Shown here: one piece after another, positions 18,680 through 53,683 of the stretch
Position numbering within the stretch: the first letter of the stretch is position 1
Layout of the letters: every line of letters starts with the position of its first letter
Assembly: GCA_001784435.1 (NCBI GenBank)
Contig: MFQZ01000004.1
Span: 1 to 53,703 of the forward strand
DNA from: Candidatus Magasanikbacteria bacterium RIFOXYC2_FULL_42_28
Lineage (GTDB): Bacteria > Patescibacteriota > Patescibacteriia > Magasanikbacterales > GWA2-37-8
Reading direction: 5' to 3'
Length of the DNA: 53,703 nucleotides
Program-made: the position numbers and the translations under genes
Notes under the pieces: generated by a model
The model's input: only the letters and a program-made list of their open reading frames with translations
Told to the model about the DNA's origin: nothing
Databases searched by the model: none

Positions 18680-19756
18680 ATGGTTTTACCTCCCCACCTC
18701 CCTCCCCAAACTTGCGATATTAAACGTTATCATCAATTCCAACGCCTCAAAATTCTTTTGGTCGCGACCGTGTTTGGTTTGGTGGCCGGACTTTCGGGCG
18801 CATCCATGATGATCGGTTGGATTTGGCCAGGGTTTGGCGGTGGGGACAGTTGGGTAGTGTCGCAACGGTTGGGAGTGGCGAGTCGTAATCAGTTGGAAGA
18901 ACGGGTGGCGACCGAGGTTTTTGAACGCGTGGCCGAAGTATATTCGGCGGGTGAAATTAATCGTGGCGTCGTGACTTTGCCGCAAAAAAATTATTTGGGT
19001 CAAGCGACGGTAATTTCGTCCGATGGTTGGCTCGTGCTGTATTTGCCTCGTCCGGTGGGAAATTATCGCGTTTGGCAAGTGGTATTGCCGGGGGGCGCGG
19101 TTTATGACGTTGATAAATTTTTGGCTGATAAATTATCAGGCTTGGTTTTTTTACATTTGATTTCCAAAGAAACCGAAGCGGTCGGTGGCAATGTTCAATT
19201 TAAAGTCGCCGGTTTGGCCGATAGTTTAGATATTGATTCTGATTTGTATGTTTTAAGCGCGGACACTTGGCGCTTAACCACGAAAATCAATGACGCCAAT
19301 TTTTCCGAAAATTATCCCCACTTGGATTCGGTGCCTACCGGACGGGCGGTTTTGGACGCCGATTTTAATGTTGGTCAAATAGTGGTAAACAATCAGGGGC
19401 GTTTGGCCGGTTTCGTTACCGACAGTCGTTTGATTTTGCCTTTTCAATATATTAGTCGGCTTTTGCCCGGCGTGTTGAATGAACAGAAAATAATTTATCC
19501 GACCTTAGGTTTAGAGGGCTGGTATTCGGATGAGCAATCGATTGCGATTGCTGGTCAAACGGTCAACGGATTTTTTGTGAGCAAGGGCGCCGGTGAGTTG
19601 CGCGCGGGGGATATAATAGTGGAAGCAAATGGCCTGTTGGCAGAAAATGACAAAATGTGGTATAATGTAAAAGCTGACGAGATCATAAAATTGAAAGTTT
19701 TACGCGCTGGCAAAAATTTGGATTTGGAAGTTAAAATTTTAGAAAAGAAATTTTAA
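18680..19756 (+). CDS. HtrA/S1C-fold protein with TM anchor and PDZ domain, catalytic residues apparently degenerate
   Basis: GQATVISSDGW, LVFLHL, VVNNQGRLAGFV, PTLGL, LRAGDIIVEANG match the HtrA layout. No GNSGG motif. Confidence 0.7.
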   Translation: MVLPPHLPPQTCDIKRYHQFQRLKILLVATVFGLVAGLSGASMMIGWIWPGFGGGDSWVVSQRLGVASRNQLEERVATEVFERVAEVYSAGEINRGVVTLPQKNYLGQATVISSDGWLVLYLPRPVGNYRVWQVVLPGGAVYDVDKFLADKLSGLVFLHLISKETEAVGGNVQFKVAGLADSLDIDSDLYVLSADTWRLTTKINDANFSENYPHLDSVPTGRAVLDADFNVGQIVVNNQGRLAGFVTDSRLILPFQYISRLLPGVLNEQKIIYPTLGLEGWYSDEQSIAIAGQTVNGFFVSKGAGELRAGDIIVEANGLLAENDKMWYNVKADEIIKLKVLRAGKNLDLEVKILEKKF

Positions 19757-23900: not shown

Positions 23901-26269
23901 GATTCAATGTGAATCCGGCTACTCTTACCGCGGACGAATTAAATGATTTGGCGGATGACGTTCGCCTGCTGAATCGTTGGCTAAAAAATAATGCCGATAC
24001 GATTGAAGATTCGCGCGCGGTGGATTATATCAATCAGAATCCGGTTACTCGCAAACAATTGGAAAATTTGGTTTACGAGGCCTACAATCGCGGTGTGTTT
24101 GCCCGTTTGGCCTTGGAAAAACTCAACAATTTTACCAATTCACAAGTTTTGGGTAGTTTGGAGAGTGATAATTTGGGTGTAAAAGCCGATGGCAATATTA
24201 GTCAACCGGACAAAGATCGCGAACGACGCCGAATTTTACTTTGGCGTATTGGTTCAACGGCAGTGGGCGCTTTAGCTGGCGCCGGTTTGGCTTGGGGGGC
24301 CGGTGAATTGTTTAGTCGCGCTAAAAATGCCGGCGCGGATGCTTTGCGTGAAAAATTTGGCATTGGCGCGGTGGCGGCCGGAGCGACTGTCCCCGGCAGT
24401 GGCGCTGGCGGGGCGGAACATGTGCCGGGTGGCCGTAGTGGCCACGGTGCTGAAGTAATTAGTCCCGACCCGGCCACAAGTGGTGGCACCGAACATTTAC
24501 CAACCGGCGAAAGACCGCCGGCGATCGCGCATTATGAATTACACGACACCCGGCTCCCGGGAGCTCCCAAATACGAAGGCATGTGGCGCGCGATTGAAAG
24601 TTTCAAGGGCGATTCTCATTTTAAGGGAATGTCCAATCATGATTATACCGATTGGCTTAAAACCGAAATGGAACGGATGGGTTATAAATTTTTAGACGGT
24701 ACCCACAAAATCGCGCACCCGTTTGATGAAAATCCCGGCGATAGGGTAGAATTATTTGTTGATGGTGAAGGTAATCCACACGTGCGCTTTTTGAATGCCG
24801 ATGGTTCGGATAAAGTGGCAATGGACCATTATAATATTGAGACGCGAGTGGGTGGAAAACCAGTGGTGGGAGCGGAAATAGAAACAAAGTTTGCCGGCTT
24901 TAATAAATTGGCGCATGAATTTGCGGACCAATGGAACAAGCCGGGTGCCGATCATGATAATTTAATAAAGAATTTTCCAATTGCTGATTTGGACTCTATT
25001 AAATCCATCAATGTTTACGGAGAGCGCGGAAGTGTAGTGGTTGAATTTACTGACAATACACAGGGGCTTTATCATCCGGTAAAAGCACTGACTGGAAATG
25101 GGTGGATTTTGCAGTCTGGCCGTGAAAATTTACAAGATGTTTTTGAGCAGGGAGTATATGATTACAATTCAAGCAAGTTGCACCCAATAGAAAATGGCGG
25201 TGTGAGATACTATGAATTGCCGGGGAAAGTTATGACTAACGGGAATAGGGCTGGTCAAGATTTTTCGATGTTATATGATATTGGTGGCAATCCAGTTGGT
25301 TATAAATTAGATGGTCTAGTAACAATTGGTCCATATCATTCAGCGATAATGGAAGGCAATAGATGGCCGGTCGGCACACCAGCGCATATTGATGTTCGCG
25401 GTGAAGGATTCAAATGGTTAACAGGCGACGCTATTAATTCAACCGACCAAGCCAGAATTTCCGCCGCGGCCGGCGGGTATGATGTCGTGCCACGATATAC
25501 CGGTGGTGGGGGAGGGACGGGGTTAAGGCCGGAGGCGGGGGCGAGCGGTGGCGGTGTGCCAATAGAAACACATCCACCGGCCAATGATGCCGTGTTGCCG
25601 CCAGAGGCGAGGGGTGCTGTCGCTGGCGCGGCCGTGAGCGAAGCCGATGTTTTTCAAGATTCTTTGCGCCCTGGTAAGGGGGCAACTGCCCAGTCGGCTT
25701 CGGCCGAACAGGTATTGTCGCCATCTGCTGTTGATGTCAGTGTTTCGCGCGGTTGGTATGGTGGTCGTGTTCTTGAGTTGTTTACTAAAGAGTTTAATTC
25801 TGTATCGTCCGAAGCGAACAATCATATCGGCAGTGCGGTAGATTCGTATAATAGACAACTATTGGCCGATGTGAAGGTGCATCCGGAAAATCACCAGCAA
25901 TTTATCTTGGCTAATAAGACCGACAATGAACAAGCGATGCTACAGGCCTATGTCAGTGATCCTTATTTTAGAGCAAATTTTCCAGATGAGTTAAAATTAG
26001 CGTTTGATTATGGCGGTACGGGTATTGAGGAAGCTAAAGTCGTAGGTGGTGATACCGCCAAGGTAATTGGTAATGGGTGTAGCGCATTTACCGCTTCTGT
26101 TGGCGACAGCGGTAAGAAATACTTTCATTATGACCCAGATTATACCTATGCTCGTGCTGTCAGCGGGGATTTAGTCGCCACTAAAGATGGTAACACTTTT
26201 TTGGTAGAATTCAATGGGCTTAATGACGACGGTACCCCCAAAGTTGATTACCAACCATTTAGCAGTTAA
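20939..26269 (+). CDS. Giant 1776-aa protein with coiled-coil, Pro/Ala linker and three Gly/Ala-rich hydrophobic segments
   Basis: Uninterrupted ORF. Hydrophobic GxxxG-rich stretches (IVTTAVLVGG..., GVAGTAALGGG..., IGSTAVGALAGAG...). Confidence 0.9.
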   Translation: MPDRHVQQSTPEAWHNFDASNFAVGDYVTYFDPADERWHFAQLDANPRHNTRNKTVELYLNDENGAPLPDLESPLPPKRIHLQEGGVIIRGQRYEVDRNLPYNDIVVDENGNAYATLWPVDATGNTIPDLDELPNMNLSMLEKVQRTSRDEAEADTRVATIHELQNRTNDVATVKRKEFVKRLNDLEKTIEDLINKLGSWNEWNDRDDREINAVKQEAAQIYKKVDADLEKLRRDLDAVLSKQAEAGNEAITEGRRKVAVDLDGAVSKSASKIAKAWEKYDKEVADSKKIWDQYDKDKKAFDDAAAAPAPAAGGKPPRPAAPKKEPTIPTVPRESVITPPTEPRDKNFIAAGSYNSLATHRPPLSAEHAEIIRLVTERFAAWENGVDGTPSPEDRTEKTGEIFLAVLEEMKNAPKVEAEPFDFAKEKEELETEAKALWDRASDGGYEPVMDLIRNSREDIHNLKKKDKNAQRNMAEIWKKLGNIEITLFKKERKDKTPNEKVKERDIDIPDTLVGEIIQSRPQELFNLMLDMYRNEYSETGYTSKGLPMEDIVADRLKNLFAAPPAGPAGQRILADLARHGIRDWNHFTLLWEQKYALRASKVLHETVRADINNDTARHISGWDKARAMLPQLAKRIVTTAVLVGGCALGASVLVPAGATALVAGAAVVGGGTVGGAVRGVLQKFWFGRKVQEDRDKKTMEDLTNRTRDQRIQMYLAQRFNFNPADFDINRSFNGGTVNAVTGLNNAADTVAELSALIAEATRVAGKEAIEIDDADRPPAGIVLTGDALRTYVRALAAWRAREHGREILPEEKKKLAETIIGIVEGKNELAEGDKAAATGLTGEGLEMYINVLKKIRREGDSPNEKQKKACALAIARLTQGAEVTQVLAAAGSDPIVIRLFDGIAQGFSGQSAKKYGWKGVAGTAALGGGMAGAFLLNSGAARAVMGAIGGGASGYHMGEGIRKGREYRDGRTRFDVVFTQTRTLQDRFNVNPATLTADELNDLADDVRLLNRWLKNNADTIEDSRAVDYINQNPVTRKQLENLVYEAYNRGVFARLALEKLNNFTNSQVLGSLESDNLGVKADGNISQPDKDRERRRILLWRIGSTAVGALAGAGLAWGAGELFSRAKNAGADALREKFGIGAVAAGATVPGSGAGGAEHVPGGRSGHGAEVISPDPATSGGTEHLPTGERPPAIAHYELHDTRLPGAPKYEGMWRAIESFKGDSHFKGMSNHDYTDWLKTEMERMGYKFLDGTHKIAHPFDENPGDRVELFVDGEGNPHVRFLNADGSDKVAMDHYNIETRVGGKPVVGAEIETKFAGFNKLAHEFADQWNKPGADHDNLIKNFPIADLDSIKSINVYGERGSVVVEFTDNTQGLYHPVKALTGNGWILQSGRENLQDVFEQGVYDYNSSKLHPIENGGVRYYELPGKVMTNGNRAGQDFSMLYDIGGNPVGYKLDGLVTIGPYHSAIMEGNRWPVGTPAHIDVRGEGFKWLTGDAINSTDQARISAAAGGYDVVPRYTGGGGGTGLRPEAGASGGGVPIETHPPANDAVLPPEARGAVAGAAVSEADVFQDSLRPGKGATAQSASAEQVLSPSAVDVSVSRGWYGGRVLELFTKEFNSVSSEANNHIGSAVDSYNRQLLADVKVHPENHQQFILANKTDNEQAMLQAYVSDPYFRANFPDELKLAFDYGGTGIEEAKVVGGDTAKVIGNGCSAFTASVGDSGKKYFHYDPDYTYARAVSGDLVATKDGNTFLVEFNGLNDDGTPKVDYQPFSS

Positions 26270-26296
26270 ATTTAGTAGTTAAAATTCTATTAAGAT

Positions 26297-26323
26297 AAAA
26301 TAGGCCTCAAAAAGGCCTATTTT
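26297..26323 (+). terminator. Intrinsic terminator
   Basis: aaaataggcct-caaaa-aggcctatttt. Confidence 0.85.
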
Positions 26324-26392
26324 ATTATGCCAAATTTTGGCTAAAATTAGCATAAATTCAATCAAATTGGGGATAAAATTAGGGTAGGGGGC

Positions 26393-26421
26393 TTGACAAG
26401 AAGCCAAAAGTGTGCTATAAT
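26393..26421 (+). promoter_or_regulatory. Perfect sigma70 promoter TTGACA-N17-TATAAT
   Basis: Exact consensus, with extended TG before the -10. Confidence 0.88.
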
Positions 26422-26426
26422 GACCA

Positions 26427-26622
26427 GTCGTGAAAATATAAAAAAGTTTACTTTTATATATTTGAGCGACGCAGGCATTTCAAGCTTTGCTTATAATGCT
26501 TGGTCAGGATATGAAAGGCGGATGCGTTTTGAGAGAGACGCGAATTCGCCCCAATACTGAAAACGACATACAATCTAAATAAATTGTAATAACCTCTCTC
26601 ATATTATATAGGGAGGTTTTTT
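26427..26622 (+). ncRNA. Candidate ~200-nt structured ncRNA of unknown family
   Basis: Lies between a perfect promoter and the terminator aacctctct..agggaggtttttt. Four hairpins by eye. No listed plus-strand ORF. Confidence 0.55.
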
Positions 26623-26972
26623 AATAAAGTATCGCTCTTTACAATATAAGTCACTCAAAAGCAATAGATTGCCGTCTGTTTTACTGGAATACTCAAGTAA
26701 AGCAAACGGCGATCTAATCCGAAGTTGATGATTTCTGATTCTTGGTTCGTCGGGCTCTTCGCAAGAAGAAACCGACATTAAAGGCCTTCTAGGTAGGCCA
26801 GTATAAAGAAACGCGGACAAACATCAGTTTGTTACGCACTTTATCAAACCTAAACCGTCTTACTCTGAATTTTAGAGCGACGGAAGGAACTGATGGAACC
26901 AAGATGAGGATTTCTGATACTGAAGAGGTGGTTGGAACCGTATGTTCGTAGGTGCGTTACATAGGAGGTCAC

Positions 26973-27488
26973 ATGACCCGCACCACTCAGGCCCTGCTCG
27001 GCGTGTTCGGTCTCGTCCTGGTCGGCGCCATCGCGTTCCTGTCCTTCACCCACACCTCCCGCACGGAGGTGGTGGAGGAGGTCCAGATCCTCCGCCAGGA
27101 GGTCCAGGACGCGAAGTACGCAAAGGCGGACGCCATGTCCGACGAGTTCAAGCTCGTCCGCCGGGAGTTCGCCGCGGCCGACGCCGCGCTCTCCGAGCGC
27201 CTGTCCGGTGTGGAGGGCGGCCTCAAGTCCGCGAACATCCGCATCCGGAAGGCCCGCGAGGAGGCCGGCAACGCGTTGGCCAGCGTCATCAACCTCGAGG
27301 GAGCCCTCGCCCGCAAGGCCGACGCCGAGGCGGTCGAGGACGCGCTCGCCGCCAAGGCCGACGTGGCCGCCCTCGCGACGAAGGCCGACAGCGAGGCCGT
27401 CGAGGCCAACTTCGCGCTCAAGGCCGACGTCGACGCGCTCGCCCGCCGCCTGGCCGGCATCGAGCCGCGCGTCAGCGCCCTCGAGTGA
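26973..27488 (+). CDS. Cassette 1: GC-rich membrane-anchored coiled-coil protein, 171 aa
   Basis: AGGAGG at 26963..26968. N-terminal TM, KAD repeats. Sample line 27121-27180 is 42/60 GC. Confidence 0.85.
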   Translation: MTRTTQALLGVFGLVLVGAIAFLSFTHTSRTEVVEEVQILRQEVQDAKYAKADAMSDEFKLVRREFAAADAALSERLSGVEGGLKSANIRIRKAREEAGNALASVINLEGALARKADAEAVEDALAAKADVAALATKADSEAVEANFALKADVDALARRLAGIEPRVSALE

Positions 27489-27492
27489 TCGA

Positions 27493-27728
27493 AGCCCCAC
27501 ACCATGTGTGGGCAAGCCCCCGCGTCGGGGCAGTGCGCGCAATGTGCACGAAACGACGCCGCGGCAATCCGCCACACGGATCCTTTACCTGGATCACAGC
27601 GGACCGCGCAGTAGGGGGAGGAGAGAATGAGACTATCGAGAGTTTCGGCAAAACTCCTCTCCCTTCCCCTACATCTGTTCATTAAATTGTTAGTGCGCAG
27701 ATGAAGTGGAAGTATTTGTTCTTTAAAA
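27493..27728 (+). ncRNA. Cassette 1 structured 3' element ending in boxA-like tgttctttaaaa
   Basis: Several short hairpins, long stem 27611..27672, last hairpin 27673..27702, purine linker, motif at 27717..27728. Confidence 0.55.
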
Positions 27729-27765
27729 TTTAAGGAGGCGTGTATTCGCCTCTATTTATTTTTAA

Positions 27766-27852
27766 CTGTCATCCCGAGCGTAGCCGAGGGATCCCTTAGA
27801 GTTGGTGTTGTTATCAACTTTAATAAATCCTTTGTTGCGCCCGGAATGACAG
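27766..27852. repeat. TGTCAT-family palindromic element between cassettes 1 and 2
   Basis: ctgtcatcccgagcgtagccgagggatc ... ccggaatgacag. Same family as 15812, 39272, 48722. Confidence 0.8.
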
Positions 27853-27939
27853 TGCAGTTTTTGCTGTTTTCCTTGTTCGTGCTCGCAACCCACCCGATAA
27901 TCGGGGCCCGACAGCGTCGGGTTTTTTGGAGGAAGTCTC

Positions 27940-28578
27940 ATGACTCGTGCACAGTTCTGGTCGTTTTTGGTGGCGGTGGTGGTCGTGGGCATCGTGGCAG
28001 TGCTGGGGTTCGGTCTCGGCTTCACCAAGGCCGACGAGGACGAGGTGGTCGCCGCCCTGGCGACCAAGGCGGAGGCCACCCGCATGGCGGCCGAGTTCGT
28101 CGCCGTGCGGGGAGAGTTCGCCGCGGGTGACGCCACTCTCGCTGCTCGCCTCACCGGCGTGGAGGGGCGGGTCTCCACCGTGGAGTCCCGCCTCACCGGC
28201 GTGGAGGGTGGCCTGAAGGCGGCCACTCGGCGGCTCTCCGAGCTGCCGCAGAAGGCCGATCTCGACGCCCTCGCCGCCCGTCTCGGTTCGGCCGAGGGTA
28301 CGCTCGCCTCGGCCCCCTGGTCGACTGGCCTGGCCACCTTGGCCGGTCGGGTCGCGACCCTCGAGACGCCCGCGCCCCCGATCGTCGCCCCCGTGTCGCC
28401 CACCTGCACTGGCTGGTCCCTCGGCGTCCGCGGCGCGCCCATCTCCCCGGTGGGTTGCTACGCGACCTGCGTTGCGGCGAAAGCTGTGGCGCAGGGTGGT
28501 AGCCGGTTCAGCGGCTCGGTCTACGGGCGGACATCCGCCCAGTGGATTGAGTCGAGCGAATCCTGCCCGGCCGAGTAG
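27940..28578 (+). CDS. Cassette 2: GC-rich paralog of cassette 1 with a Cys-containing C-terminal domain, 212 aa
   Basis: GGAGG SD. N-terminal TM. EFxxVRxEFAAxDAxLxxRLxGVEGGLK shared with cassette 1. Internal 42-bp duplication. Confidence 0.85.
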
Positions 28579-28587
28579 TTCTTTCAC

Positions 28588-28798
28588 ACCCCACCGCACG
28601 ATCTCCCGATCGTAGCGGTTGGCGGCACACAGCGCGTCTTTCCTGTAAGCGCTGGATCGGTCAGACGGTTTGTCTCCCCGTGAGACGAGTCGGCTTCCGT
28701 TGGAAAGGGTCCCGAGTTTGTTGGCAACAACACTCTCGGGCACTCTGGCATGTTGATTTGTTAATCAAGTCAACAGTTAGAGTAGGTGTTCTTTACAA
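28588..28798 (+). ncRNA. Cassette 2 structured 3' element (173 bp shared with cassette 3)
   Basis: 28588..28760 matches 29602..29774 with 2 mismatches, then gtcaacagttaga and tgttctttacaa. Confidence 0.7.
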
Positions 28799-28933
28799 AA
28801 AATTAAATTTTCCGGCGTGAACTTTTCATTGTTTAGAAAAATAATGAAGAGCTCACGCCGGATCCGATCGAGGCATATTGTGGACGATCCACAATGTTGC
28901 TTTAGTTGGGATTATCTGGTAGAGGAGGTTCCT

Positions 28934-29596
28934 ATGGGGCGCAAACCCCCGACCTCGGCGCGCGTCATCGCGACGTTCGCCATCCTCTGCGCCACGGCCT
29001 CCCCGGCCGCGGCGCAATCTGAAACCGGTGACGCGGCGCCCGCCGCTGTCACCCCTGATCCGGCCGAGTTGCCGGTGCCCCCAACCTCACCCGACCCGGG
29101 TGGCTGGAAGTTGGTGCTCGCCCCCGAGTTCAGCGTCGGGGTGGCGCACTCGGAGGCCGGCTTCGACGCCGACTCCGAGGATGCCTACCTCGGCACCGTC
29201 TCGGCCACCTTGCTCCTGCGCCACTCGGCCCTGTCCGGTGGTGAGCCCTCATCTTTCCTGTATGGGCTTCGCGGCTTGTACGGGTTGGGTGGTGGCTCGT
29301 CGGGTGCACGCCAGTTGTGGGGCGTCGCTGGCCTTCTGGGTTGGCGCGCGTCTCGCGACCGCGTCGTCGGGGGCATTGGTCTGTCCTACATCCAGTATGA
29401 CAAGGCAGGCGGGGATTGGGTCCGCCGCGGTGGCGGCGTTCCGCTCTGGATCGAGATCAAATTGGGGGATAGCACCTCCAATTGGTTCCTCGGTCTGGAA
29501 GGGACGCCCGCCATCCTCTGGCGGGACCTGGACGATGCCCCTGCGTTCGCCTTCGGGCTGAACGCGGGGGTGCTCTACCACATCCCCCTCTACTAG
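28934..29596 (+). CDS. Cassette 3: GC-rich secreted protein resembling a small outer-membrane beta-barrel, 220 aa
   Basis: AGGAGG at 28923..28928. Signal peptide (ASPAAA-Q), Pro-rich linker, Gly/aromatic-rich amphipathic strands, C-terminal GLNAGVLYHIPLY. Confidence 0.75.
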   Translation: MGRKPPTSARVIATFAILCATASPAAAQSETGDAAPAAVTPDPAELPVPPTSPDPGGWKLVLAPEFSVGVAHSEAGFDADSEDAYLGTVSATLLLRHSALSGGEPSSFLYGLRGLYGLGGGSSGARQLWGVAGLLGWRASRDRVVGGIGLSYIQYDKAGGDWVRRGGGVPLWIEIKLGDSTSNWFLGLEGTPAILWRDLDDAPAFAFGLNAGVLYHIPLY

Positions 29597-29601
29597 TCTT
29601 T

Positions 29602-29817
29602 ACCCCACCGCACGATCTCCCGATCGTAGCGGTTGGCGGCACACAGCGCGCCTTTCCTGTAAGCGCTGGATCGGTCAGACGGTTTGTCTCCCCGTGAGAC
29701 GAGTCGGCTTCCGATGGAAAGGGTCCCGAGTTTGTTGGCAACAACACTCTCGGGCACTCTGGCATGTTGATTTGACATACGAAGCATCGAGTCAACAGTT
29801 AGATTGGTTCTTTAAAA
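29602..29817 (+). ncRNA. Cassette 3 structured 3' element (near-identical to cassette 2 element)
   Basis: 173-bp direct repeat, different loop in the final hairpin, ggttctttaaaa at 29806..29817. Confidence 0.7.
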
Positions 29818-29979
29818 TTTAGAAAAATAAATTAAAATATAAATGATACTGCGCGCGACTGGCGCGGAAAGAGAAATTATTATTTGATTTTTCTTTCTGC
29901 GTCAGTTTGTAGTTCGGTGCTCCGAGGATGGTCCTCGTAGGTGCCGGCGCAGCAAATCGCATAGCAAGGAGAAAAAACT

Positions 29980-31530
29980 ATGCGTACCACCAACATCGCG
30001 GTGGTTCTCTGTCTCGGACTCTGGACCGCTTCGTGCGGCACCAAGGCCGAGGCCCCCGGGCTCGACGTGCCCGCGGACGACGATAACACGGCGGATGACG
30101 ACACCGCCGACAACGACGACCTCGTCGTTTGCCTCGAGTGCAACGACGATGACCCGTGCACCACGGACTGGTGCCGGGTGTCACCCCCCCCTGGGGTCGA
30201 CTCGTGTGTCCACATGAACGGGGACGCCGGCGTCACCTGCGACGACGGCAACGGTTGCACCGAGACCGACGTGTGCGACGGGGTGGGCACCTGCGTTGGC
30301 ACGCCCCTGGCGTGCGACGACGGCGATGCCTGCACCGACGACGCGTGCACCGACGGCGTGTGCAACAACACGTCCGTCACCTGCGACGACGGCGATGCGT
30401 GTACCGCGGAGTTCTGCGGGACCATCGCCGGCGGTACCGGTGGGTGCTTCTCGGTTCCCGTGGCTGGCGAAGGCTGCGAGGAGGAGTCCAACTGTACCGT
30501 CGCCAGCGATGGCGTCGGGAATTTCTCCCTGACCTGCCCGGACGGCTCCGTGGCAGAGTGGGGTGACGGCGCGGATGGCGCGCCGGGAATGGACGGAGCC
30601 GATGGGGTCGATGGGACCCCGGGTACCGACGGCGTCGATGGCAGCGACGGCACGGACGGAACCGATGGCGCGCCGGGAGCTGACGGGCTCGACGGTGCGG
30701 ACGGGGCGGATGGCGCCCCGGGTGATTCGTGCAGCGTGACTGTGCTTCCGATGGGGTGCATGGTCATTGTGTGCGGGGATGACGATCCTTCCCCGCCCCT
30801 GTGCCCGGACGTGTCCGAGGCCGGATGCACCACCACGCAGGACGGCGACTGTGCTGTCATCAACTGTGTGGGTGGATCTACGTCGCGGGTGTGCCCCACC
30901 ACGACGGCTCCTGCCTGTGTCACCGACGGCGACTGCGCCGACGGCAATGCCTGCAACGGCCACGAATCGTGTGTGGCCGGGGAGTGTGTGAATGGGGTCG
31001 TGGTGTCGTGTCTGGCCGCGGACGCGTGCCATCTCGTCGGTGAGTGTGATCCGGCGAATGGCCTGTGCTCCTCGCCTTCCGCCCCGACGGGGACGGTGTG
31101 CGACGACGGCAACGCCGGCACCACCGGCGACCAGTGCGACGGCGCTGGCCTGTGTGTGGGGGTGGCCACGCCCCCCAGCCCCGATGCCGATGGCGACGGG
31201 TACAGCATCGCGGCCGGCGATTGCGACGATGACCCCACCGTGGGTCCGTCGCCGGCCCGATGGTGCCGGGGGAGCGACACGAAGAAGTTCCTCGTGATCG
31301 ACTTCCTCGGAAGTGTGGCCCCGGCCTGCCCAGCCGGAAGTGTCGAAGTCGCGCTGACCGACGGGTCCGCGCTCAACAACCCCGGTATCCACGATACCAC
31401 CGGGGATGGCTTCGACAACAACTGCAACGGCATCATCGACGAGGGCGGCGGGGACCAGTGCACCTGGTCGCACATGTCGTCCGGTCCCGCGCTGGACTAT
31501 CTCGTTCGATGCCCGTGGATGAACCCGTAG
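29980..31530 (+). CDS. Cassette 4: GC-rich Cys-rich lipoprotein with CDDGxACT repeats, collagen-like Gly-X-Y tract and metal-binding-type motif, 516 aa
   Basis: AAGGAG SD, lipobox WTASC, repeated CDDGNxCT, GADGAPGMDG... tract, DADGDGY..GDCDD and DGFDNNCNGIIDEG. Confidence 0.88.
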   Translation: MRTTNIAVVLCLGLWTASCGTKAEAPGLDVPADDDNTADDDTADNDDLVVCLECNDDDPCTTDWCRVSPPPGVDSCVHMNGDAGVTCDDGNGCTETDVCDGVGTCVGTPLACDDGDACTDDACTDGVCNNTSVTCDDGDACTAEFCGTIAGGTGGCFSVPVAGEGCEEESNCTVASDGVGNFSLTCPDGSVAEWGDGADGAPGMDGADGVDGTPGTDGVDGSDGTDGTDGAPGADGLDGADGADGAPGDSCSVTVLPMGCMVIVCGDDDPSPPLCPDVSEAGCTTTQDGDCAVINCVGGSTSRVCPTTTAPACVTDGDCADGNACNGHESCVAGECVNGVVVSCLAADACHLVGECDPANGLCSSPSAPTGTVCDDGNAGTTGDQCDGAGLCVGVATPPSPDADGDGYSIAAGDCDDDPTVGPSPARWCRGSDTKKFLVIDFLGSVAPACPAGSVEVALTDGSALNNPGIHDTTGDGFDNNCNGIIDEGGGDQCTWSHMSSGPALDYLVRCPWMNP

Positions 31531-31790
31531 CGGGTATCCAACGCAGTGAGCTGGTGAACATAACACCGGCAATATAGCAAAAAAATGTCGGGAGATACCG
31601 TAATTCTCCTAGTCCGCCCAGTAAAGGAGGGGTGGAAATGAAACGGAACACAATGCGTCCGTGGCGCGCAAGCGTCTGGATGTTTGACAGCAGGCGTCGG
31701 TGGGGAGGTCTCATACTTCCCTGCCGACGCCCGCCCGATTGAGAACATAAAGATTTGTGTTTTCAAACAGGGTGAAGCGATTTAAAGTTT
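31531..31790 (+). ncRNA. Cassette 4 structured 3' element
   Basis: Short hairpins, long stem 31693..31731, last hairpin 31739..31766, purine linker, degenerate gcgatttaaa. Confidence 0.5.
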
Positions 31791-31962
31791 GAAGATATAG
31801 TTTTACATATTAACGTCTCGGTTCGAAAATGCAAAAACTTCGTTTTTTCATTTTGCTCACCTTCGAGACGCTAATAAAAATACCACCAAGTTCGTCTCTC
31901 TCATCCTATGTTTTTTTAGACAAAGGAAGAAGAACTCGGTGGTATTTTTGTTTTATTTATAC

Positions 31963-32316
31963 CTATGCGACCTGCAATTGTTTTACTTGTCTTTCTAAAA
32001 AGTCCACTCGTTTGCGTAACTCCAGAATATCTTTGGCCGCGGCATCTTCATCGCCAATAATGCGTTGTTCCAATTGATCCAACTGGCGATTAATTAATTT
32101 TAACTCAGAGTGAATATACGCAAGCGCGCTGGCCATTTCAGATTTAAATTCCGACAGTTCGCCTTTGACTGACTTTATTTCCGCGCTTAGTTCTCCTTTC
32201 AATTCATCAAACCGCCTGTCCACGCTTTTAGCGAATAATTCCATTGCCTCTAAAATTTCGTTATTACTCACCTCTTTTTTGGCTGTCATATTGTTTGACA
32301 TTAATTTTTTAAGCAA
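31963..32316 (-). CDS. Small coiled-coil hypothetical protein (start uncertain, 32316/32301/32289)
   Basis: Heptad-repeat character. AT-rich, genome-like codon usage. Confidence 0.75.
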   Translation of the reverse strand: MLKKLMSNNMTAKKEVSNNEILEAMELFAKSVDRRFDELKGELSAEIKSVKGELSEFKSEMASALAYIHSELKLINRQLDQLEQRIIGDEDAAAKDILELRKRVDFLERQVKQLQVA

Positions 32317-32392
32317 ATTTATTATATCATTGTTTTAAAATAATTGTCAAACGCAATGGATTTTTTAATAGTAATATGGTAAAATATATCTT

Positions 32393-33778
32393 ATGATTGC
32401 ACAAACAATTAGTACCAGATCAACCAGATTAAAATTTTTGGTCGTGATTTTAGCGACTGTTTTGGCTTTTGGCGCCACTATTTTTTACGGCACTTTTGGC
32501 GCGGTTTTGGCCGGAGTGGTTTTTTTGATTTGGTTTTTTTCCAGCCGTTTGACGATTGGTTGGTATATTTTGGTGGCGTTGTCACCCTTTATCGGCTGGC
32601 AAATTTATTTGGAACATTATTTTCGCGGGTCGCCGTTTTTTGCCGGTTGGAACGCGCCACCGGTGGAGTTTTGGGCGATTTTAATGTTGCTGGCTTTTGC
32701 TTTAGATTATGTTCGTCAATTGTTTGACGGCGCACAACCGCGCTTGATTTTTCCTCGGGCTAAATATTTTTTGTTGTTTGGCGCGAGCGCTTTTCTGTCG
32801 CTCATTAACATCCCGGCGTCCGAACGCTTGGCTGGTGTTAAATTTATTGCGCACTTTTTTTTATTTACTTATTTTGCCTATGTTTTTTTGGGAGCCAATA
32901 TTGTCAAATCAAAAATTGTTTGGGAAAACAGTTTAAAAATTTTAGTGGGCGTTGGTATTTTCGGCGCGGCGACGGGGGCGTGGTCGTTGTTTATCGGCGC
33001 TTGGAATGTGGGCGGATTAGAGCGCGCAGTGCCATTGCCCATTGGCGGAATTTGGCCATTGGGCGACCAGCATATTTTACTCGCGGAATTTTTGCTCATT
33101 GCTTTAATATCTGCTTGGTATTTTTACTTAACTCGCAAAACATTTTTGACCGGTTTGTTGACGTTATTTATTGGCGTTGTCGGCCTGCTGACCTGGTCGC
33201 GTTCTTTTTGGTTGGCGATTATTATTACCGGCGCGGTGGTGGGATTTCAATATCGCGCTAAAATTAATTGGGCGGGGATAGCGCAAAAATTTTTGCCGCT
33301 TTTGATTATTTTATTATTCGTGGTCGGTTACTGGTTTTATTTTATGTATTCGGCTGATATGGTAATTGGCAGTTCTAATAGCGCGCGCGCGTCTGGCGCC
33401 GAATTCGCCTGGGAGTTGGCGCGGACTTATCCGTTAATCGGGGCGGGAGTGGGTAGTTTTGTGCCACGCTTAAGCGAAATATATTATTATCGGATTGATT
33501 TTGGTGACGCCGTGGACGCGCTGGGCTGGCCACAGAAAATTTTGGCTGAACAGGGATTTTTAGGTTTTGGCATATTCGTCGGTCTTATCGCCAGCGTTTT
33601 ATATTCTTTGCGGAGCGCGTTTTTGGCAACTGGTAGTCGTGCCAATCGTATTATTTATTTTTCGGCCTTCTGTCTATTTTTGGCACCGTTAATTTTTGAA
33701 ATGTTTACCACTAATTATTACAGCGCGCGCTTGTGGGTACCATTGGCTTTGGCGCTCGCGGTTATCGATGATCTATGA
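32393..33778 (+). CDS. O-antigen ligase / Wzy-like membrane protein
   Basis: Multi-TM. LTWSRSFW, YPLIGAGVGSF, ILAEQGFLG resemble the Wzy_C layout. Confidence 0.8.
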   Translation: MIAQTISTRSTRLKFLVVILATVLAFGATIFYGTFGAVLAGVVFLIWFFSSRLTIGWYILVALSPFIGWQIYLEHYFRGSPFFAGWNAPPVEFWAILMLLAFALDYVRQLFDGAQPRLIFPRAKYFLLFGASAFLSLINIPASERLAGVKFIAHFFLFTYFAYVFLGANIVKSKIVWENSLKILVGVGIFGAATGAWSLFIGAWNVGGLERAVPLPIGGIWPLGDQHILLAEFLLIALISAWYFYLTRKTFLTGLLTLFIGVVGLLTWSRSFWLAIIITGAVVGFQYRAKINWAGIAQKFLPLLIILLFVVGYWFYFMYSADMVIGSSNSARASGAEFAWELARTYPLIGAGVGSFVPRLSEIYYYRIDFGDAVDALGWPQKILAEQGFLGFGIFVGLIASVLYSLRSAFLATGSRANRIIYFSAFCLFLAPLIFEMFTTNYYSARLWVPLALALAVIDDL

Positions 33779-51724: not shown

Positions 51725-51799
51725 GGCCTCATCGTCTAACGGCTAGGACAGAGCCTTCTCAAGGCTTAAATCGGGGTTCGATTCCCCGTGGGGCTACCA
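51725..51799 (+). tRNA. tRNA-Glu (CUC)
   Basis: ggcctca/tggggct acceptor stem, anticodon arm gagcc-ttCTCaa-ggctt, T-arm cgggg-ttcgatt-ccccg, CCA encoded. Confidence 0.95.
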
Positions 51800-53321
51800 C
51801 GTTAAAACAATTCGGGTTTTTGACAAAATTTTCACGGGCAACGCACAGCGTCGCCCAAGGGTTTTTCGGCGAATTGTCGCCGTTTTTATATTCCCCCCAC
51901 ACCAGTTTACCGCCCGCGAGGCGGAGGTTCGAGCCAAAGATTTCTTTGGCAACAACCTTTTTGGCAAAAAGGTTGTTCTCCCGCGCGATTTGAGGCAGAT
52001 TTTCTGTCTCTTTTATCCATTGTCGCATCGGTTCGAGCCAACTATTTCGTTTCTGTTCGGCGGTCAATATTTTCTCCTCCAGCGACTTTTTCTCGCTCAT
52101 AAATTTCGCCTTCTTTTCCAGATATATTTCGCGCTCTATATCTTGCTCTAAATAACTATCTAACAGTCGCTGTAATTTGGTTTTAATATTTTCTATCGCA
52201 CTTTTGTTCTCTTGAACAAAAGCAACTGACGACTGCGCATCGCTATTTTTGTCTTTTTCTAAAATCGCTGTTAATTGTGTCGCCCAATCCGCGCTCAAAG
52301 AAAATTTTTGTAATAATAAGGATGTCTGCTCGTCTAAACTTTCTTGGCGAATACAGGGTTCGTCACATTTTATTGTTTTATTTTTCTTTGTGCAATGGTA
52401 ATAAATATAGTCATGAGTATTACCATTTTTCTGACGTTTAACCCTGTATTCGCCAGTTATTCCCATTCCGCACGTTCCACATTTCAACATTCCACAAAAC
52501 GCTTGCGCCTTGTTTTTAGTTTTGTGATGCGGTCGTCCTTTTTGTTTTAAAATATTTTGAACTATATCAAAAATCTTCTTTGAAATAATTGGCTCATGTT
52601 TTCCTTCGTATAATTCTTTGTTGTATTTAAAAAATCCGACATAAAACGGATTGGAAAGCGTAAACGAAACTTTATCTCGTTTCCAATTTTTTTCGTTCTT
52701 TGTTTTAATACCTTGCTCTGCCAAAAAGTTAGATACATCTTCCAGTCGTGAATTGCCCTGCGCATAAAATTCAAAAGTTTTGCGTAAAATCTCAGCTCTT
52801 CTTTTATCCACCGCCACATTTTTTGTGCGTGGGTCGTTGAAATATTCAAAGGGCGCAAGGCCGGGATATTCTCCACGTCTAACTTTCTGATGCATTCCGC
52901 GCTTGACGTTTTCGCTTAAACTATCAACATAATATTTGCTTTGTCCAAAAGCAATATTAAGCATAAATTTTCCTTGCGGGGTTGGCTCAAACCAAAATTG
53001 CGGAAATTTTAACGCTAAAATATTTCCGCAATCCAAAAGATAAATTATTTTTCCGCCGTCAACAGAATTGCGTGCCAAACGATCTGGGTGCCAACTGATT
53101 ATACCGTTTGCTTCTCCGCGTTCTATTCTTTCCAGCATTGAATTAAAAATCGGTCTGCCCGGGATTTTAGCTGACTGCTTTTCTATTAACTCCTCAATAA
53201 TATCAAATTTTTCGTTTCTCGCGAACGCGCGCAACTCGGTAATTTGCGCCTCAATACTTAAAACTTGTTTATCTTCCACATCCGTGGATTTACGGGCATA
53301 CAAAAAGAATTTTTGTGCCAT
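51759..53321 (-). CDS. Large serine recombinase (resolvase domain, recombinase domain, Zn ribbon, coiled coil); C-terminus reads antisense into tRNA-Glu
   Basis: FFLYARKST (catalytic Ser), WHPDRLARN, NPFYVG, HEPII, CGTCG..YYHC. Confidence 0.95.
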   Translation of the reverse strand: MAQKFFLYARKSTDVEDKQVLSIEAQITELRAFARNEKFDIIEELIEKQSAKIPGRPIFNSMLERIERGEANGIISWHPDRLARNSVDGGKIIYLLDCGNILALKFPQFWFEPTPQGKFMLNIAFGQSKYYVDSLSENVKRGMHQKVRRGEYPGLAPFEYFNDPRTKNVAVDKRRAEILRKTFEFYAQGNSRLEDVSNFLAEQGIKTKNEKNWKRDKVSFTLSNPFYVGFFKYNKELYEGKHEPIISKKIFDIVQNILKQKGRPHHKTKNKAQAFCGMLKCGTCGMGITGEYRVKRQKNGNTHDYIYYHCTKKNKTIKCDEPCIRQESLDEQTSLLLQKFSLSADWATQLTAILEKDKNSDAQSSVAFVQENKSAIENIKTKLQRLLDSYLEQDIEREIYLEKKAKFMSEKKSLEEKILTAEQKRNSWLEPMRQWIKETENLPQIARENNLFAKKVVAKEIFGSNLRLAGGKLVWGEYKNGDNSPKNPWATLCVARENFVKNPNCFNVVAPRGIEPRFKP

Positions 53322-53683
53322 ATATTTGAAATTCAAAATGCCGTCCTGGTGCACCCAACCCAAAGAACTTAAAAAGTCAAAGGATTGTCCAAGACGGCAA
53401 TTAAAAAAGTCCTTTGGTTAAGTTGGGTGCGAGGTTATTATATCACAAATCTCAAAAACAATACATCGGTTTGGATAAAACAAATTTTGTTTCAAAATTT
53501 GAAAATCGCGCGGGAGCCGAACCTCCACCTCGCGAGCGGTAAATTGGTGTGGCCTGCCTTCGCTAATGCTTCGGCGAGTCAACGGGGGGAATTAAAAAAC
53601 GGCGACGGTTGGCCAAAAAACCCATGGGCGATGCTGTGCGTCGCCCGTGAAAATTTTGTCCAAAACCCGAATTGTTTTAACGT
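51799..53683. mobile_element. Serine-recombinase element at the tRNA-Glu 3' end, bracketed by imperfect inverted repeats
   Basis: 51799..51931 is the diverged reverse complement of 53518..53683, which carries a 31-bp palindromic insert at 53553..53583. Confidence 0.6.
53340..53429 (-). promoter_or_regulatory. Structured 5' leader of the recombinase gene with crossing stems
   Basis: 53340..53349 pairs with 53389..53398, and 53351..53359 pairs with 53421..53429. TATAAT just upstream on the minus strand. Confidence 0.55.

Follow-up and report, generated by a model that had tools for sequence, protein, structure and literature searches.

A boxA-like motif recurs before every gene of a conserved GC-rich array in a Magasanikbacteria chromosome

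A boxA-like motif in the spacers of a gene array

In the chromosome of Candidatus Magasanikbacteria bacterium RIFOXYC2_FULL_42_28, four GC-rich open reading frames (ORFs; c1 to c4) lie in a row on the plus strand, each with an 11-nucleotide (nt) motif, GYTCTTTAMAA, ahead of it. They form an array within a stretch of ~44% GC (contig MFQZ01000004.1, positions 1 to 53,703; hereafter the window); the array is bounded upstream by a 1776-amino-acid (aa) ORF, whose last position is 26269, and downstream by a wzy-like gene beginning at 32393. Judged by its sequence, the motif between the genes is a very good candidate for boxA, the RNA signal that loads Nus factors against an early stop of RNA polymerase. 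We consider it probable (roughly 0.6) that Nus/boxA antitermination would be renewed at each long, untranslated and structured spacer of the array.

The motif has four copies in the 53.7 kb, all on the plus strand and all within the array, against 0.29 expected, and four copies were reached in 0 of 100 shuffles. A sequence-only reading of this DNA had set the frequency of the motif as its check beforehand and had placed the motif at the ends of the 3' tails that follow the genes. Copies were indeed found where it saw them, at 27718, 28788 and 29807, and a further copy, which it had missed, stands at 26634. The four sites are as follows.

26634 to 26644, plus strand: boxA-like site 0, GCTCTTTACAA; the -10 element lies 213 nt before it and the c1 start codon 339 nt after it
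27718 to 27728, plus strand: boxA-like site 1, GTTCTTTAAAA; identical to the functional clustered regularly interspaced short palindromic repeat (CRISPR) boxA of Legionella Lens
28788 to 28798, plus strand: boxA-like site 2, GTTCTTTACAA
29807 to 29817, plus strand: boxA-like site 3, GTTCTTTAAAA; ahead of c4

Distances from motif to start codon range from 146 to 339 nt in the window, and the mean unpaired probability of the motif is 0.52 compared to 0.35 in its flanks. No copy was found 3' of c4 in a scan of the window, and the "degenerate" motif previously assigned to that place is effectively absent. A degenerate extra motif at 27797-27818, inside an insert resembling a miniature inverted-repeat transposable element (MITE), was set aside as probably coincidental. 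Because the motif precedes the first gene and never follows the last, and because promoters lie between tail and motif in two related loci (L008 and L024), it marks where the leader of the following gene starts and does not close a tail noncoding RNA (ncRNA). The idea that each tail ends by reloading antitermination for the next unit thus survives in part: a boxA-like copy stands before every gene and long read-through is plausible, but the copy belongs to the leader downstream.

Identity with functional boxA sites and rRNA leaders

Sites 27718 and 29807 fit the functional boxA consensus GYTCTTTAANA (Baniulyte et al., PMC5725501) exactly, and sites 26634 and 28788 deviate from it only by a C at position 9. 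The sequence of the former pair, GTTCTTTAAAA, is also that of the 11-nt boxA of the Legionella pneumophila Lens CRISPR array (bioRxiv 10.1101/2020.06.17.157628; PMC7862264), and the boxA-like label, first given from the letters alone, is supported by both matches. When added to a CRISPR array leader, the Lens boxA relieved a polarity that the authors attribute to Rho-dependent termination (PMC7862264).

The form with C at position 9 (A9C), TCTTTACAA, was sought 61-121 nt upstream of the 16S 5' primer site in 185,579 species genomes, and 48 stretches matched in this range of the rRNA operon (rrn) leader. Five Saccharibacteria records carry an identical CATCTTTACAATTTAG with a gap of 69 nt to the 16S site, and five Opitutales records have a common ATTCTTTACAA at 71 nt. 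One Parcubacteria genome (L072) presents TTGACA-17-TACAAT, a hairpin, AAAAG and GTCTTTACAA, with a 119-nt gap to the 16S site; promoter, hairpin, A-rich linker and motif follow one another in the same order as in the array. The 16S rRNA downstream was confirmed by Rfam in the Parcubacteria record and in one Saccharibacteria record. Neither the window nor the Magasanikbacteria-like loci contain an rRNA operon. The 53.7 kb of the genome covered by the window also do not include the genes for NusB, NusE, NusA, NusG and Rho, and a literature search on NusB in the candidate phyla radiation found nothing useful.

The best-known cases of antitermination by boxA and Nus factors are those of rRNA operons and lambdoid phages, together with CRISPR arrays and a small number of mRNA leaders. 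In E. coli, the rrn leader has the sequence GCTCTTTAACAATTTA and the rrn boxA the sequence GCUCUUUAACAA. Like rrn operons, which carry boxB, boxA and boxC in leader and spacer copies, the array combines the common core sequence with a hairpin just upstream, a position that follows a strong promoter and precedes long, structured stretches of untranslated RNA, and several copies per operon. It differs from them in that it is protein-coding, has a copy before every gene (four in the window) and has upstream structures far larger than boxB, and no boxC was identified. The EAR element, an intergenic processive-antitermination RNA of Bacillus eps operons, is likewise a conserved structured RNA between genes of a cell-surface cluster and could favor read-through. 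However, EAR uses no boxA, whereas the array has its boxA-like sites, and the array shows neither resemblance to EAR in sequence or structure nor an Rfam match.

In the Legionella CRISPR leader, the boxA is identical (GTTCTTTAAAA) and has a proposed anti-Rho role on a long, poorly translated or untranslated transcript (PMC7862264; boxA in CRISPR leaders was reported by Stringer et al.), but a CRISPR array has one leader boxA and zero translation, whereas the sites described here recur inside a translated operon. The boxA sites of mRNA leaders (suhB, rpsJ and others) likewise lie upstream of protein-coding genes and share the consensus GYTCTTTAANA (PMC5725501). Those sites are close to the start codon: the survey of mRNA leaders took sites within 50 nt, and in suhB, the one well-studied case upstream of a protein-coding gene, boxA represses (PMC5725501). 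In contrast, the array sites are far upstream, repeated and placed between large structures.

Conservation of the array and of its motif

Homologs of the wzy-like protein, their contigs and a metagenome scan yielded about a dozen distinct syntenic loci. Two to four genes stand at the same place upstream of wzy in L006, L008, L014, L017, L019, L024 and L027 (locus GC 39-51%), and the GC-rich relatives L016, L021 and L022 (56-61% GC) share the locus; wherever a locus reaches far enough, the array genes follow the giant ORF. The last gene of L006 is 55% identical to c4 over the C-terminal 123 residues (E = 8e-37). With a syntenic array across species and an orthologous last gene, the array is a conserved locus and therefore not a set of mobile cassettes, the term under which its units had first been described. 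The arrays have the following coordinates.

Window: 26973 to 31530
L006: 5171 to 9230
L008: 6729 to 9115
L014: 3960 to 9573
L017: 234 to 6249
L019: 4415 to 9518
L024: 5371 to 9271
L027: 633 to 4778

Equivalents of site 3 (29807) are present in L006, L014, L017, L019, L024, L027 and L016. Across nine non-redundant syntenic loci, a widened pattern, G[CTA]TC[TAG]TTA[AC]AA, gave 18 sense-strand matches in 47.8 kb of arrays compared to 2 elsewhere (368.5 kb of strand positions; binomial p ~2e-15). Every in-array match lies upstream of a GC-rich gene, and none comes after the last gene. The consensus over 19 array sites is GTTCTTTACAAtttA, in which positions 1, 3, 4, 6-8, 10 and 11, those fixed by the search pattern, are invariant while the flanks diverge. 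The GC-rich (61% GC) relatives keep the motif as GATCTTTACAA, and near-variants such as GTTCTTTTCAA occur in other long spacers. Most arrays have one promoter and two main motif copies, of which the first stands in the array leader and the second ahead of the large c4-like gene; in six genomes, a predicted consensus promoter precedes the array-leader copy by 25-213 nt. The two genes of L008 each have their own consensus promoters, followed by the motif and then by a repeated leader hairpin; in L024, the tail hairpins are separated from the motif by a consensus promoter.

Four independent assemblies of the source strain have an identical gene order, and when records with exactly the same c1, c4 or wzy-like protein were looked up, those retrieved (ENA, JGI and Logan assemblies) showed this arrangement only. 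Two of the strain's assemblies end at the repeat formed by tails 2 and 3, and the c2 protein is not on record. The nearest named relative of the wzy-like protein is from Candidatus Magasanikbacteria, and its gene has no match in the GTDB species genomes; the source genome and its close relatives are therefore not in that collection.

The genes of the array in the window are given below.

26973 to 27488, plus strand: c1, 171-aa membrane-anchored coiled-coil protein; GC ~70%; own ribosome-binding site (RBS)
27940 to 28578, plus strand: c2, 212-aa membrane-anchored protein; distant paralog of c1
28934 to 29596, plus strand: c3, 220-aa protein with a signal peptide
29980 to 31530, plus strand: c4, lipoprotein of 516 aa; Cys-rich repeats, collagen-like stretch; orthologous to L006 7059-9230

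Each of the four has its own RBS and a GC content of 65-79%, the spacers being AT-rich, and all of the products are membrane-anchored or secreted (coiled coil, signal-peptide protein and Cys-rich collagen-like lipoprotein). GC at third codon positions (GC3) in array genes is mostly 0.83-0.95 (0.73-0.79 for two ORFs; clearly lower in L006, whose genes have only ~55-65% GC), and ~0.2-0.45 in flanking ORFs of the 39-51% GC loci. Among 5.8 billion proteins searched, c2 has no relative other than its paralog c1, and no orthologs of c1 to c3 were found in other arrays by blastp at E below 1e-4. Database searches place c4 closest to Cys-rich repeat proteins (Dicty_CTDC and MYXO-CTERM type) of Myxococcota and Deltaproteobacteria, with the match confined to the repeat modules, hinting at a GC-rich foreign origin for c4; viral contigs gave no match to it.

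One of the two out-of-array matches, on the minus strand of L016 (19203; unit 19060-19290), is part of a unit in which a perfect promoter is followed by a hairpin, GCTCTTTACAA, a structured leader and a lipoprotein gene, the 859-aa product of which is a Dicty_CTDC Cys-rich lipoprotein. The boxA leaders seem tied to this class of Cys-rich lipoproteins.

Structure and kinship of the 3' tails

The tail that follows each gene was folded by minimum free energy (MFE), with the following results.

27489 to 27717, plus strand: tail 1, five hairpins; long GC stem 27613-27664 and final hairpin 27665-27710, which are the conserved P1 and P2/P3
28579 to 28787, plus strand: tail 2, six hairpins; long stem 28709-28741, final hairpin 28742-28783
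29597 to 29806, plus strand: tail 3, near-identical to tail 2; long stem 29720-29760, longer final hairpin 29761-29800
31531 to 31790, plus strand: tail 4, six or seven hairpins; long stem 31693-31731, final hairpin 31732-31774; no boxA-like motif after it

The final hairpins are more AT-rich than the long GC stems, and the folds agree within a few bases with the hairpins that the sequence-only reading had drawn. Relative to dinucleotide shuffles, all four tails are far more stably folded (z about -5 to -7), with values of -5.6, -6.5 and -7.0 and, in an independent run, of -5.1 to -6.8, and 230-nt windows inside GC-rich ORFs, taken for comparison, average -2.1. The tails had been described as divergent in sequence and alike in layout. 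The shared layout was recovered, but tails 2 and 3 match each other at 99% of 173 nt (28588-28760 and 29602-29774), a stretch reaching from the stop codon nearly as far as the motif, and the genes upstream of them differ from each other. Two tails of the L017 array (1005-1150 and 2364-2505) are near-identical as well, from stop codon to motif, and diverge after it. In both genomes, tail plus motif thus behaves as a unit of duplication or gene conversion, which suggests that the spacers may undergo concerted evolution or recombination.

Tail 1 is a member of a conserved structured RNA family that shows covariation and is absent from Rfam. The element consists of P1 (GGGUGGGGA...AAUGAGA...CUCCUC.CCCUCCC) and then P2, which closes a variable hairpin, P3; the purine box AGAAUGGGAG is the 3' strand of P2. 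The final hairpin had been thought to be followed by a purine linker: the hairpin is there, but the linker of tail 1 is largely the 3' strand of a helix, in which UCCCCUAC pairs with GAAGUGGA. A covariance model (CM) seeded with five species matches 27610-27735 in the window (94 bits) and one site each in L014, L016, L017, L024 and L027, with scores of 79-121 bits; it recovers L017 although this was not in the seed, and L006 weakly (E = 0.004). In the alignment of seven sequences, 86% of cells are paired compared to 69% in shuffles and 54-67% with slid partners, and 18 of 26 pairs show compensatory changes compared to 9.9 in shuffles; it counts against these figures that the alignment was fitted to the model, so that they lean towards structure, and the sample is a small one of seven species. 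The element lies after c1 in the window and before the c4-like gene in other genomes.

The same model scores 14.7 bits on tail 2 (E ~0.7), its only match near tail 3 spans just the motif (29801-29824; 12.5 bits, E 2.6), and tail 4 has no match to it; blastn against the other loci gave no relatives of tails 2, 3 or 4. What unites the tails is therefore a layout and not one demonstrable family. Searches with the 4227 covariance models of Rfam (E limit of 10 for the window and of 1 for L014; gathering score in seven related loci) found only tmRNA and tRNAs at gathering score, and matches in the array were noise only. In every species, the tail of the last gene has three to six strong hairpins and ends in a canonical terminator. 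The tails look like cis-acting intercistronic structures and not free-standing ncRNAs. Of the new ncRNA family proposed from the sequence, a family of the tail-1 type stands, to which tails 2 to 4 do not demonstrably belong.

Tail 4 also contains a 38-codon ORF (MKRNTMRPWRASVWMFDSRRRWGGLILPCRRPPD) preceded by AAAGGAGG, at 31638-31754, which overlaps the long GC stem and may be spurious.

Promoter and leaders of the array

The array has a single predicted promoter, the sole strong plus-strand promoter within 26200-32400, which recurs in the same position and form in L006, L008, L019 and L024. A promoter scan found no consensus promoter in the spacers of the window, and genes 2 to 4 therefore need read-through. 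The promoter and the elements of the leaders are as follows.

26393 to 26421, plus strand: array promoter, consensus sigma-70, TTGACA-17-TATAAT with TG before the -10 element; 12/12 matches
26430 to 26630, plus strand: first part of the array leader, in which GAGAGAG (~26531) can pair with CUCUCUC (~26597)
26645 to 26972, plus strand: c1 5' leader, structured (z -6.5)
27734 to 27753, plus strand: hairpin 6 nt after boxA-like site 1, then ATTTATTTTT; terminator-like
27765 to 27853, plus strand: MITE-like insert in the c2 leader, ~90 nt, with 25-nt inverted repeats ACTGTCATCCCGAGCGTAGCCGAGG and CCTTTGTTGCGCCCGGAATGACAGT
28811 to 28862, plus strand: c3 leader hairpin with 24-nt arms
29859 to 29905, plus strand: c4 leader hairpin of 20 pairs, then a T-rich run
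31873 to 31952, plus strand: terminal long hairpin with 25-nt arms, then a T-run

The first part of the array leader looks like an attenuator, in that CUCUCUC doubles as the 5' arm of a terminator-like hairpin with a U-run (26594-26630). This arrangement recurs at L006 4823-4905, is common to the two closest genomes and has no match in Rfam; ahead of the first boxA-like site, it may act as a regulatory switch. The 5' leaders that lie 3' of the motifs match the tails in degree of structure, with z of -5.8 to -8.5. An intrinsic-terminator form, with a GC-rich hairpin and a U-run, fits 27734-27753, 29859-29905 and 31873-31952, and the transcription unit probably ends at the last of these. No consistent U-run follows the long GC stems of the tails. 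Among the inverted repeats listed, none pairs a gene leader with its own tail in the manner of an rRNA-like processing stem; no further search for such complementarity was made.

The insert at 27765-27853 looks like a MITE from its terminal repeats, and related sequence was found by blastn at L006 11275-11316 and L015 1257-1281. By eye, it also resembles repeats around a GIY-YIG gene of L006 (9610-9990). A long structure is conserved in the leader of the c4-like gene at L014 7015-7413, L017 3768-4104, L024 7666-7888 and L027 2637-2849, with AAAGCUUCGGGAAU...CCCCGGAGCUUUG showing compensatory changes, then GGGCGGGCU.CAUGCCUGCGGCC...GGCCAA.AGCAUGGAGCCC. This four-species structure is not in Rfam and is absent from the c4 leader of the window.

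Evidence against boxA antitermination and alternative explanations

Several observations weigh against boxA antitermination in the array. The gap in unpaired probability between the motif and its flanks is modest. Most copies have C at position 9, where the gamma-proteobacterial consensus has A. The widened pattern was derived from the same loci in which it was counted, and the strict pattern gives 11 matches against 1. Copies 26634 and 27718 adjoin terminator-like hairpins, and E. coli rrn antitermination is weak against intrinsic terminators. A 9-mer in a 61-nt range is expected by chance in some tens of genomes, and consequently only lineage-conserved cases count among the matches upstream of 16S; the rrn evidence also comes from other lineages of the candidate phyla radiation, not from a Magasanikbacterium rrn leader.

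If the motif were instead an RNA processing or stability signal, an endoribonuclease would cut the transcript at this open, A/U-rich site between hairpin blocks into monocistronic mRNAs with tail-protected 3' ends, and no Nus factor would be involved. Its location in a more open stretch between very stable structures would suit this, as would multi-hairpin tails that make good 3' protectors and the exact duplication of the tail, from stop codon to motif, in two species. We nevertheless regard processing as improbable, given that it leaves unexplained the promoter-proximal copies before any gene, the identical sequence upstream of 16S rRNA and the identity to a functional boxA, and that an 11-mer kept in genomes of 37-61% GC would be unusual for a cleavage site. 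A role as part of a promoter, by which each gene would have its own start with TACAAT or TAAAAT as the -10 element or TTTACA as the -35 element, appears quite improbable. Although TACAAT and TAAAAT resemble the -10 hexamer, and candidate pairs can be found (TTTAAA-16-TAAAAT at 29811-29838, 9/12; TTCACA-17-TACAAT in L014; TTTACA-17-TATAGT in L016), most copies lack a partner hexamer at the correct spacing, and the conserved GYTCTTT is not a promoter feature. True promoters in these loci are near-perfect TTGACA-17-TGnTATAMT and lie 25-213 nt upstream of the motif. With partner hexamers missing and consensus promoters upstream, the promoter role was largely rejected.

A boxA that represses, as in E. 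coli suhB, deserves about as little credence as a promoter role. There, a Nus complex would block translation and promote Rho termination, tying the surface genes to Nus levels. The suhB precedent of repression by a boxA before a protein-coding gene (PMC5725501) and the strong hairpin and T-run directly after site 1 speak for it, but the sites lie 146-339 nt from start codons, whereas the mRNA-leader survey covered those within 50 nt (PMC5725501), and a repressive site repeated before each gene of one operon has no clear logic. The array also recalls integron-like mobile cassettes, with tails akin to attC sites and the motif as crossover point: its GC-rich ORFs lie in an AT-rich genome, c1 to c3 have no detectable orthologs, the 3' structures are diverse in sequence and alike in layout, follow promoterless ORFs of foreign composition and have a short motif at the junctions, and tails are homogenized within arrays. 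However, the integron attC core is GTTRRRY, which GTTCTTT does not fit, there are no R or L boxes, and the motif has no inverted partner in the tails. No integrase domain was found in the neighboring ORFs scanned. Many species carry the array at this chromosomal location, its last gene being orthologous, four assemblies of the strain have an identical order, and the motif also stands upstream of rRNA. Given the lack of an integrase domain in the scanned ORFs, the wrong core, the missing inverted partner and the vertical conservation, the integron explanation was rejected as very improbable.

A proposed model of renewed antitermination

Under boxA antitermination, one transcript of ~5.4 kb from the promoter at 26393-26421 would encode four secreted or membrane-anchored proteins. 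Read-through over such a length is plausible because there is a single consensus promoter, none in the spacers, and a boxA-like site before every gene. Between genes, the transcript would contain 350-450 nt of untranslated RNA, made up of a 3' tail and the next 5' leader and almost wholly folded into hairpins, which would normally invite Rho. The 11-nt boxA (G-Y-U-C-U-U-U-A-M-A-A), in the more open stretch between tail and leader, would be bound in the nascent RNA by NusB and NusE (S10), and with NusA and NusG this could yield a Rho-resistant RNA polymerase. A fresh boxA for each gene would then renew protection across the next leader and its GC-rich, probably slowly translated ORF, in parallel to the leader boxA and spacer boxA of rrn operons. 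We infer that the tails would serve as cis-acting 3' structures of the gene upstream and may protect the mRNA end, terminate transcription in part or deny Rho a loading site.

We speculate further that the spacers could form a lineage-specific noncoding scaffold, combining nut-like antitermination or insulator modules with homology arms for the swapping of GC-rich, fast-evolving surface genes, possibly of myxobacterial type. Such a scaffold is unlikely, and it would explain why spacers are better conserved than ORFs, why tails are homogenized within arrays in two species and why a GC3 of ~0.9 persists in genomes of ~40% GC.

Other features of the window

Genes elsewhere in the window include ligA, pyruvate phosphate dikinase, mur ligases, a penicillin-binding protein, tmRNA and two tRNAs. 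Two tandem ORFs at 107-1105 and 1156-2154 have equal length (332 aa) and the same pattern of antisense ORFs, the first with leucine-rich repeats, and probably arose by a recent tandem duplication. On the minus strand, the gene for a large serine recombinase (534 aa; 51725-53363) overlaps or abuts a plus-strand tRNA gene (51725-51796), a junction that may be the edge of an integrated element. Between 21-nt inverted repeats (31792-31812 and 32372-32392), downstream of the array, a minus-strand ORF encodes a 117-aa coiled-coil protein (31963-32316) and has a perfect promoter of its own at 32350-32321.

Implications

One conserved RNA structure, that of the tail-1 type, is added here that Rfam does not hold. 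The array composition is a separate puzzle: GC3 of 0.83-0.95 is seen in several loci with an overall GC of 39-51%. If boxA antitermination is correct, this would be a case of boxA repeated before every gene of a protein-coding operon, in an uncultured lineage of the candidate phyla radiation and linked with a conserved array whose surface-protein genes are foreign in composition. It would offer a concrete cis-element for how bacteria with tiny genomes express long transcripts that are structured or poorly translated, and the succession of promoter, hairpin and TCTTTACAA would provide a search handle for such operons in Patescibacteria.

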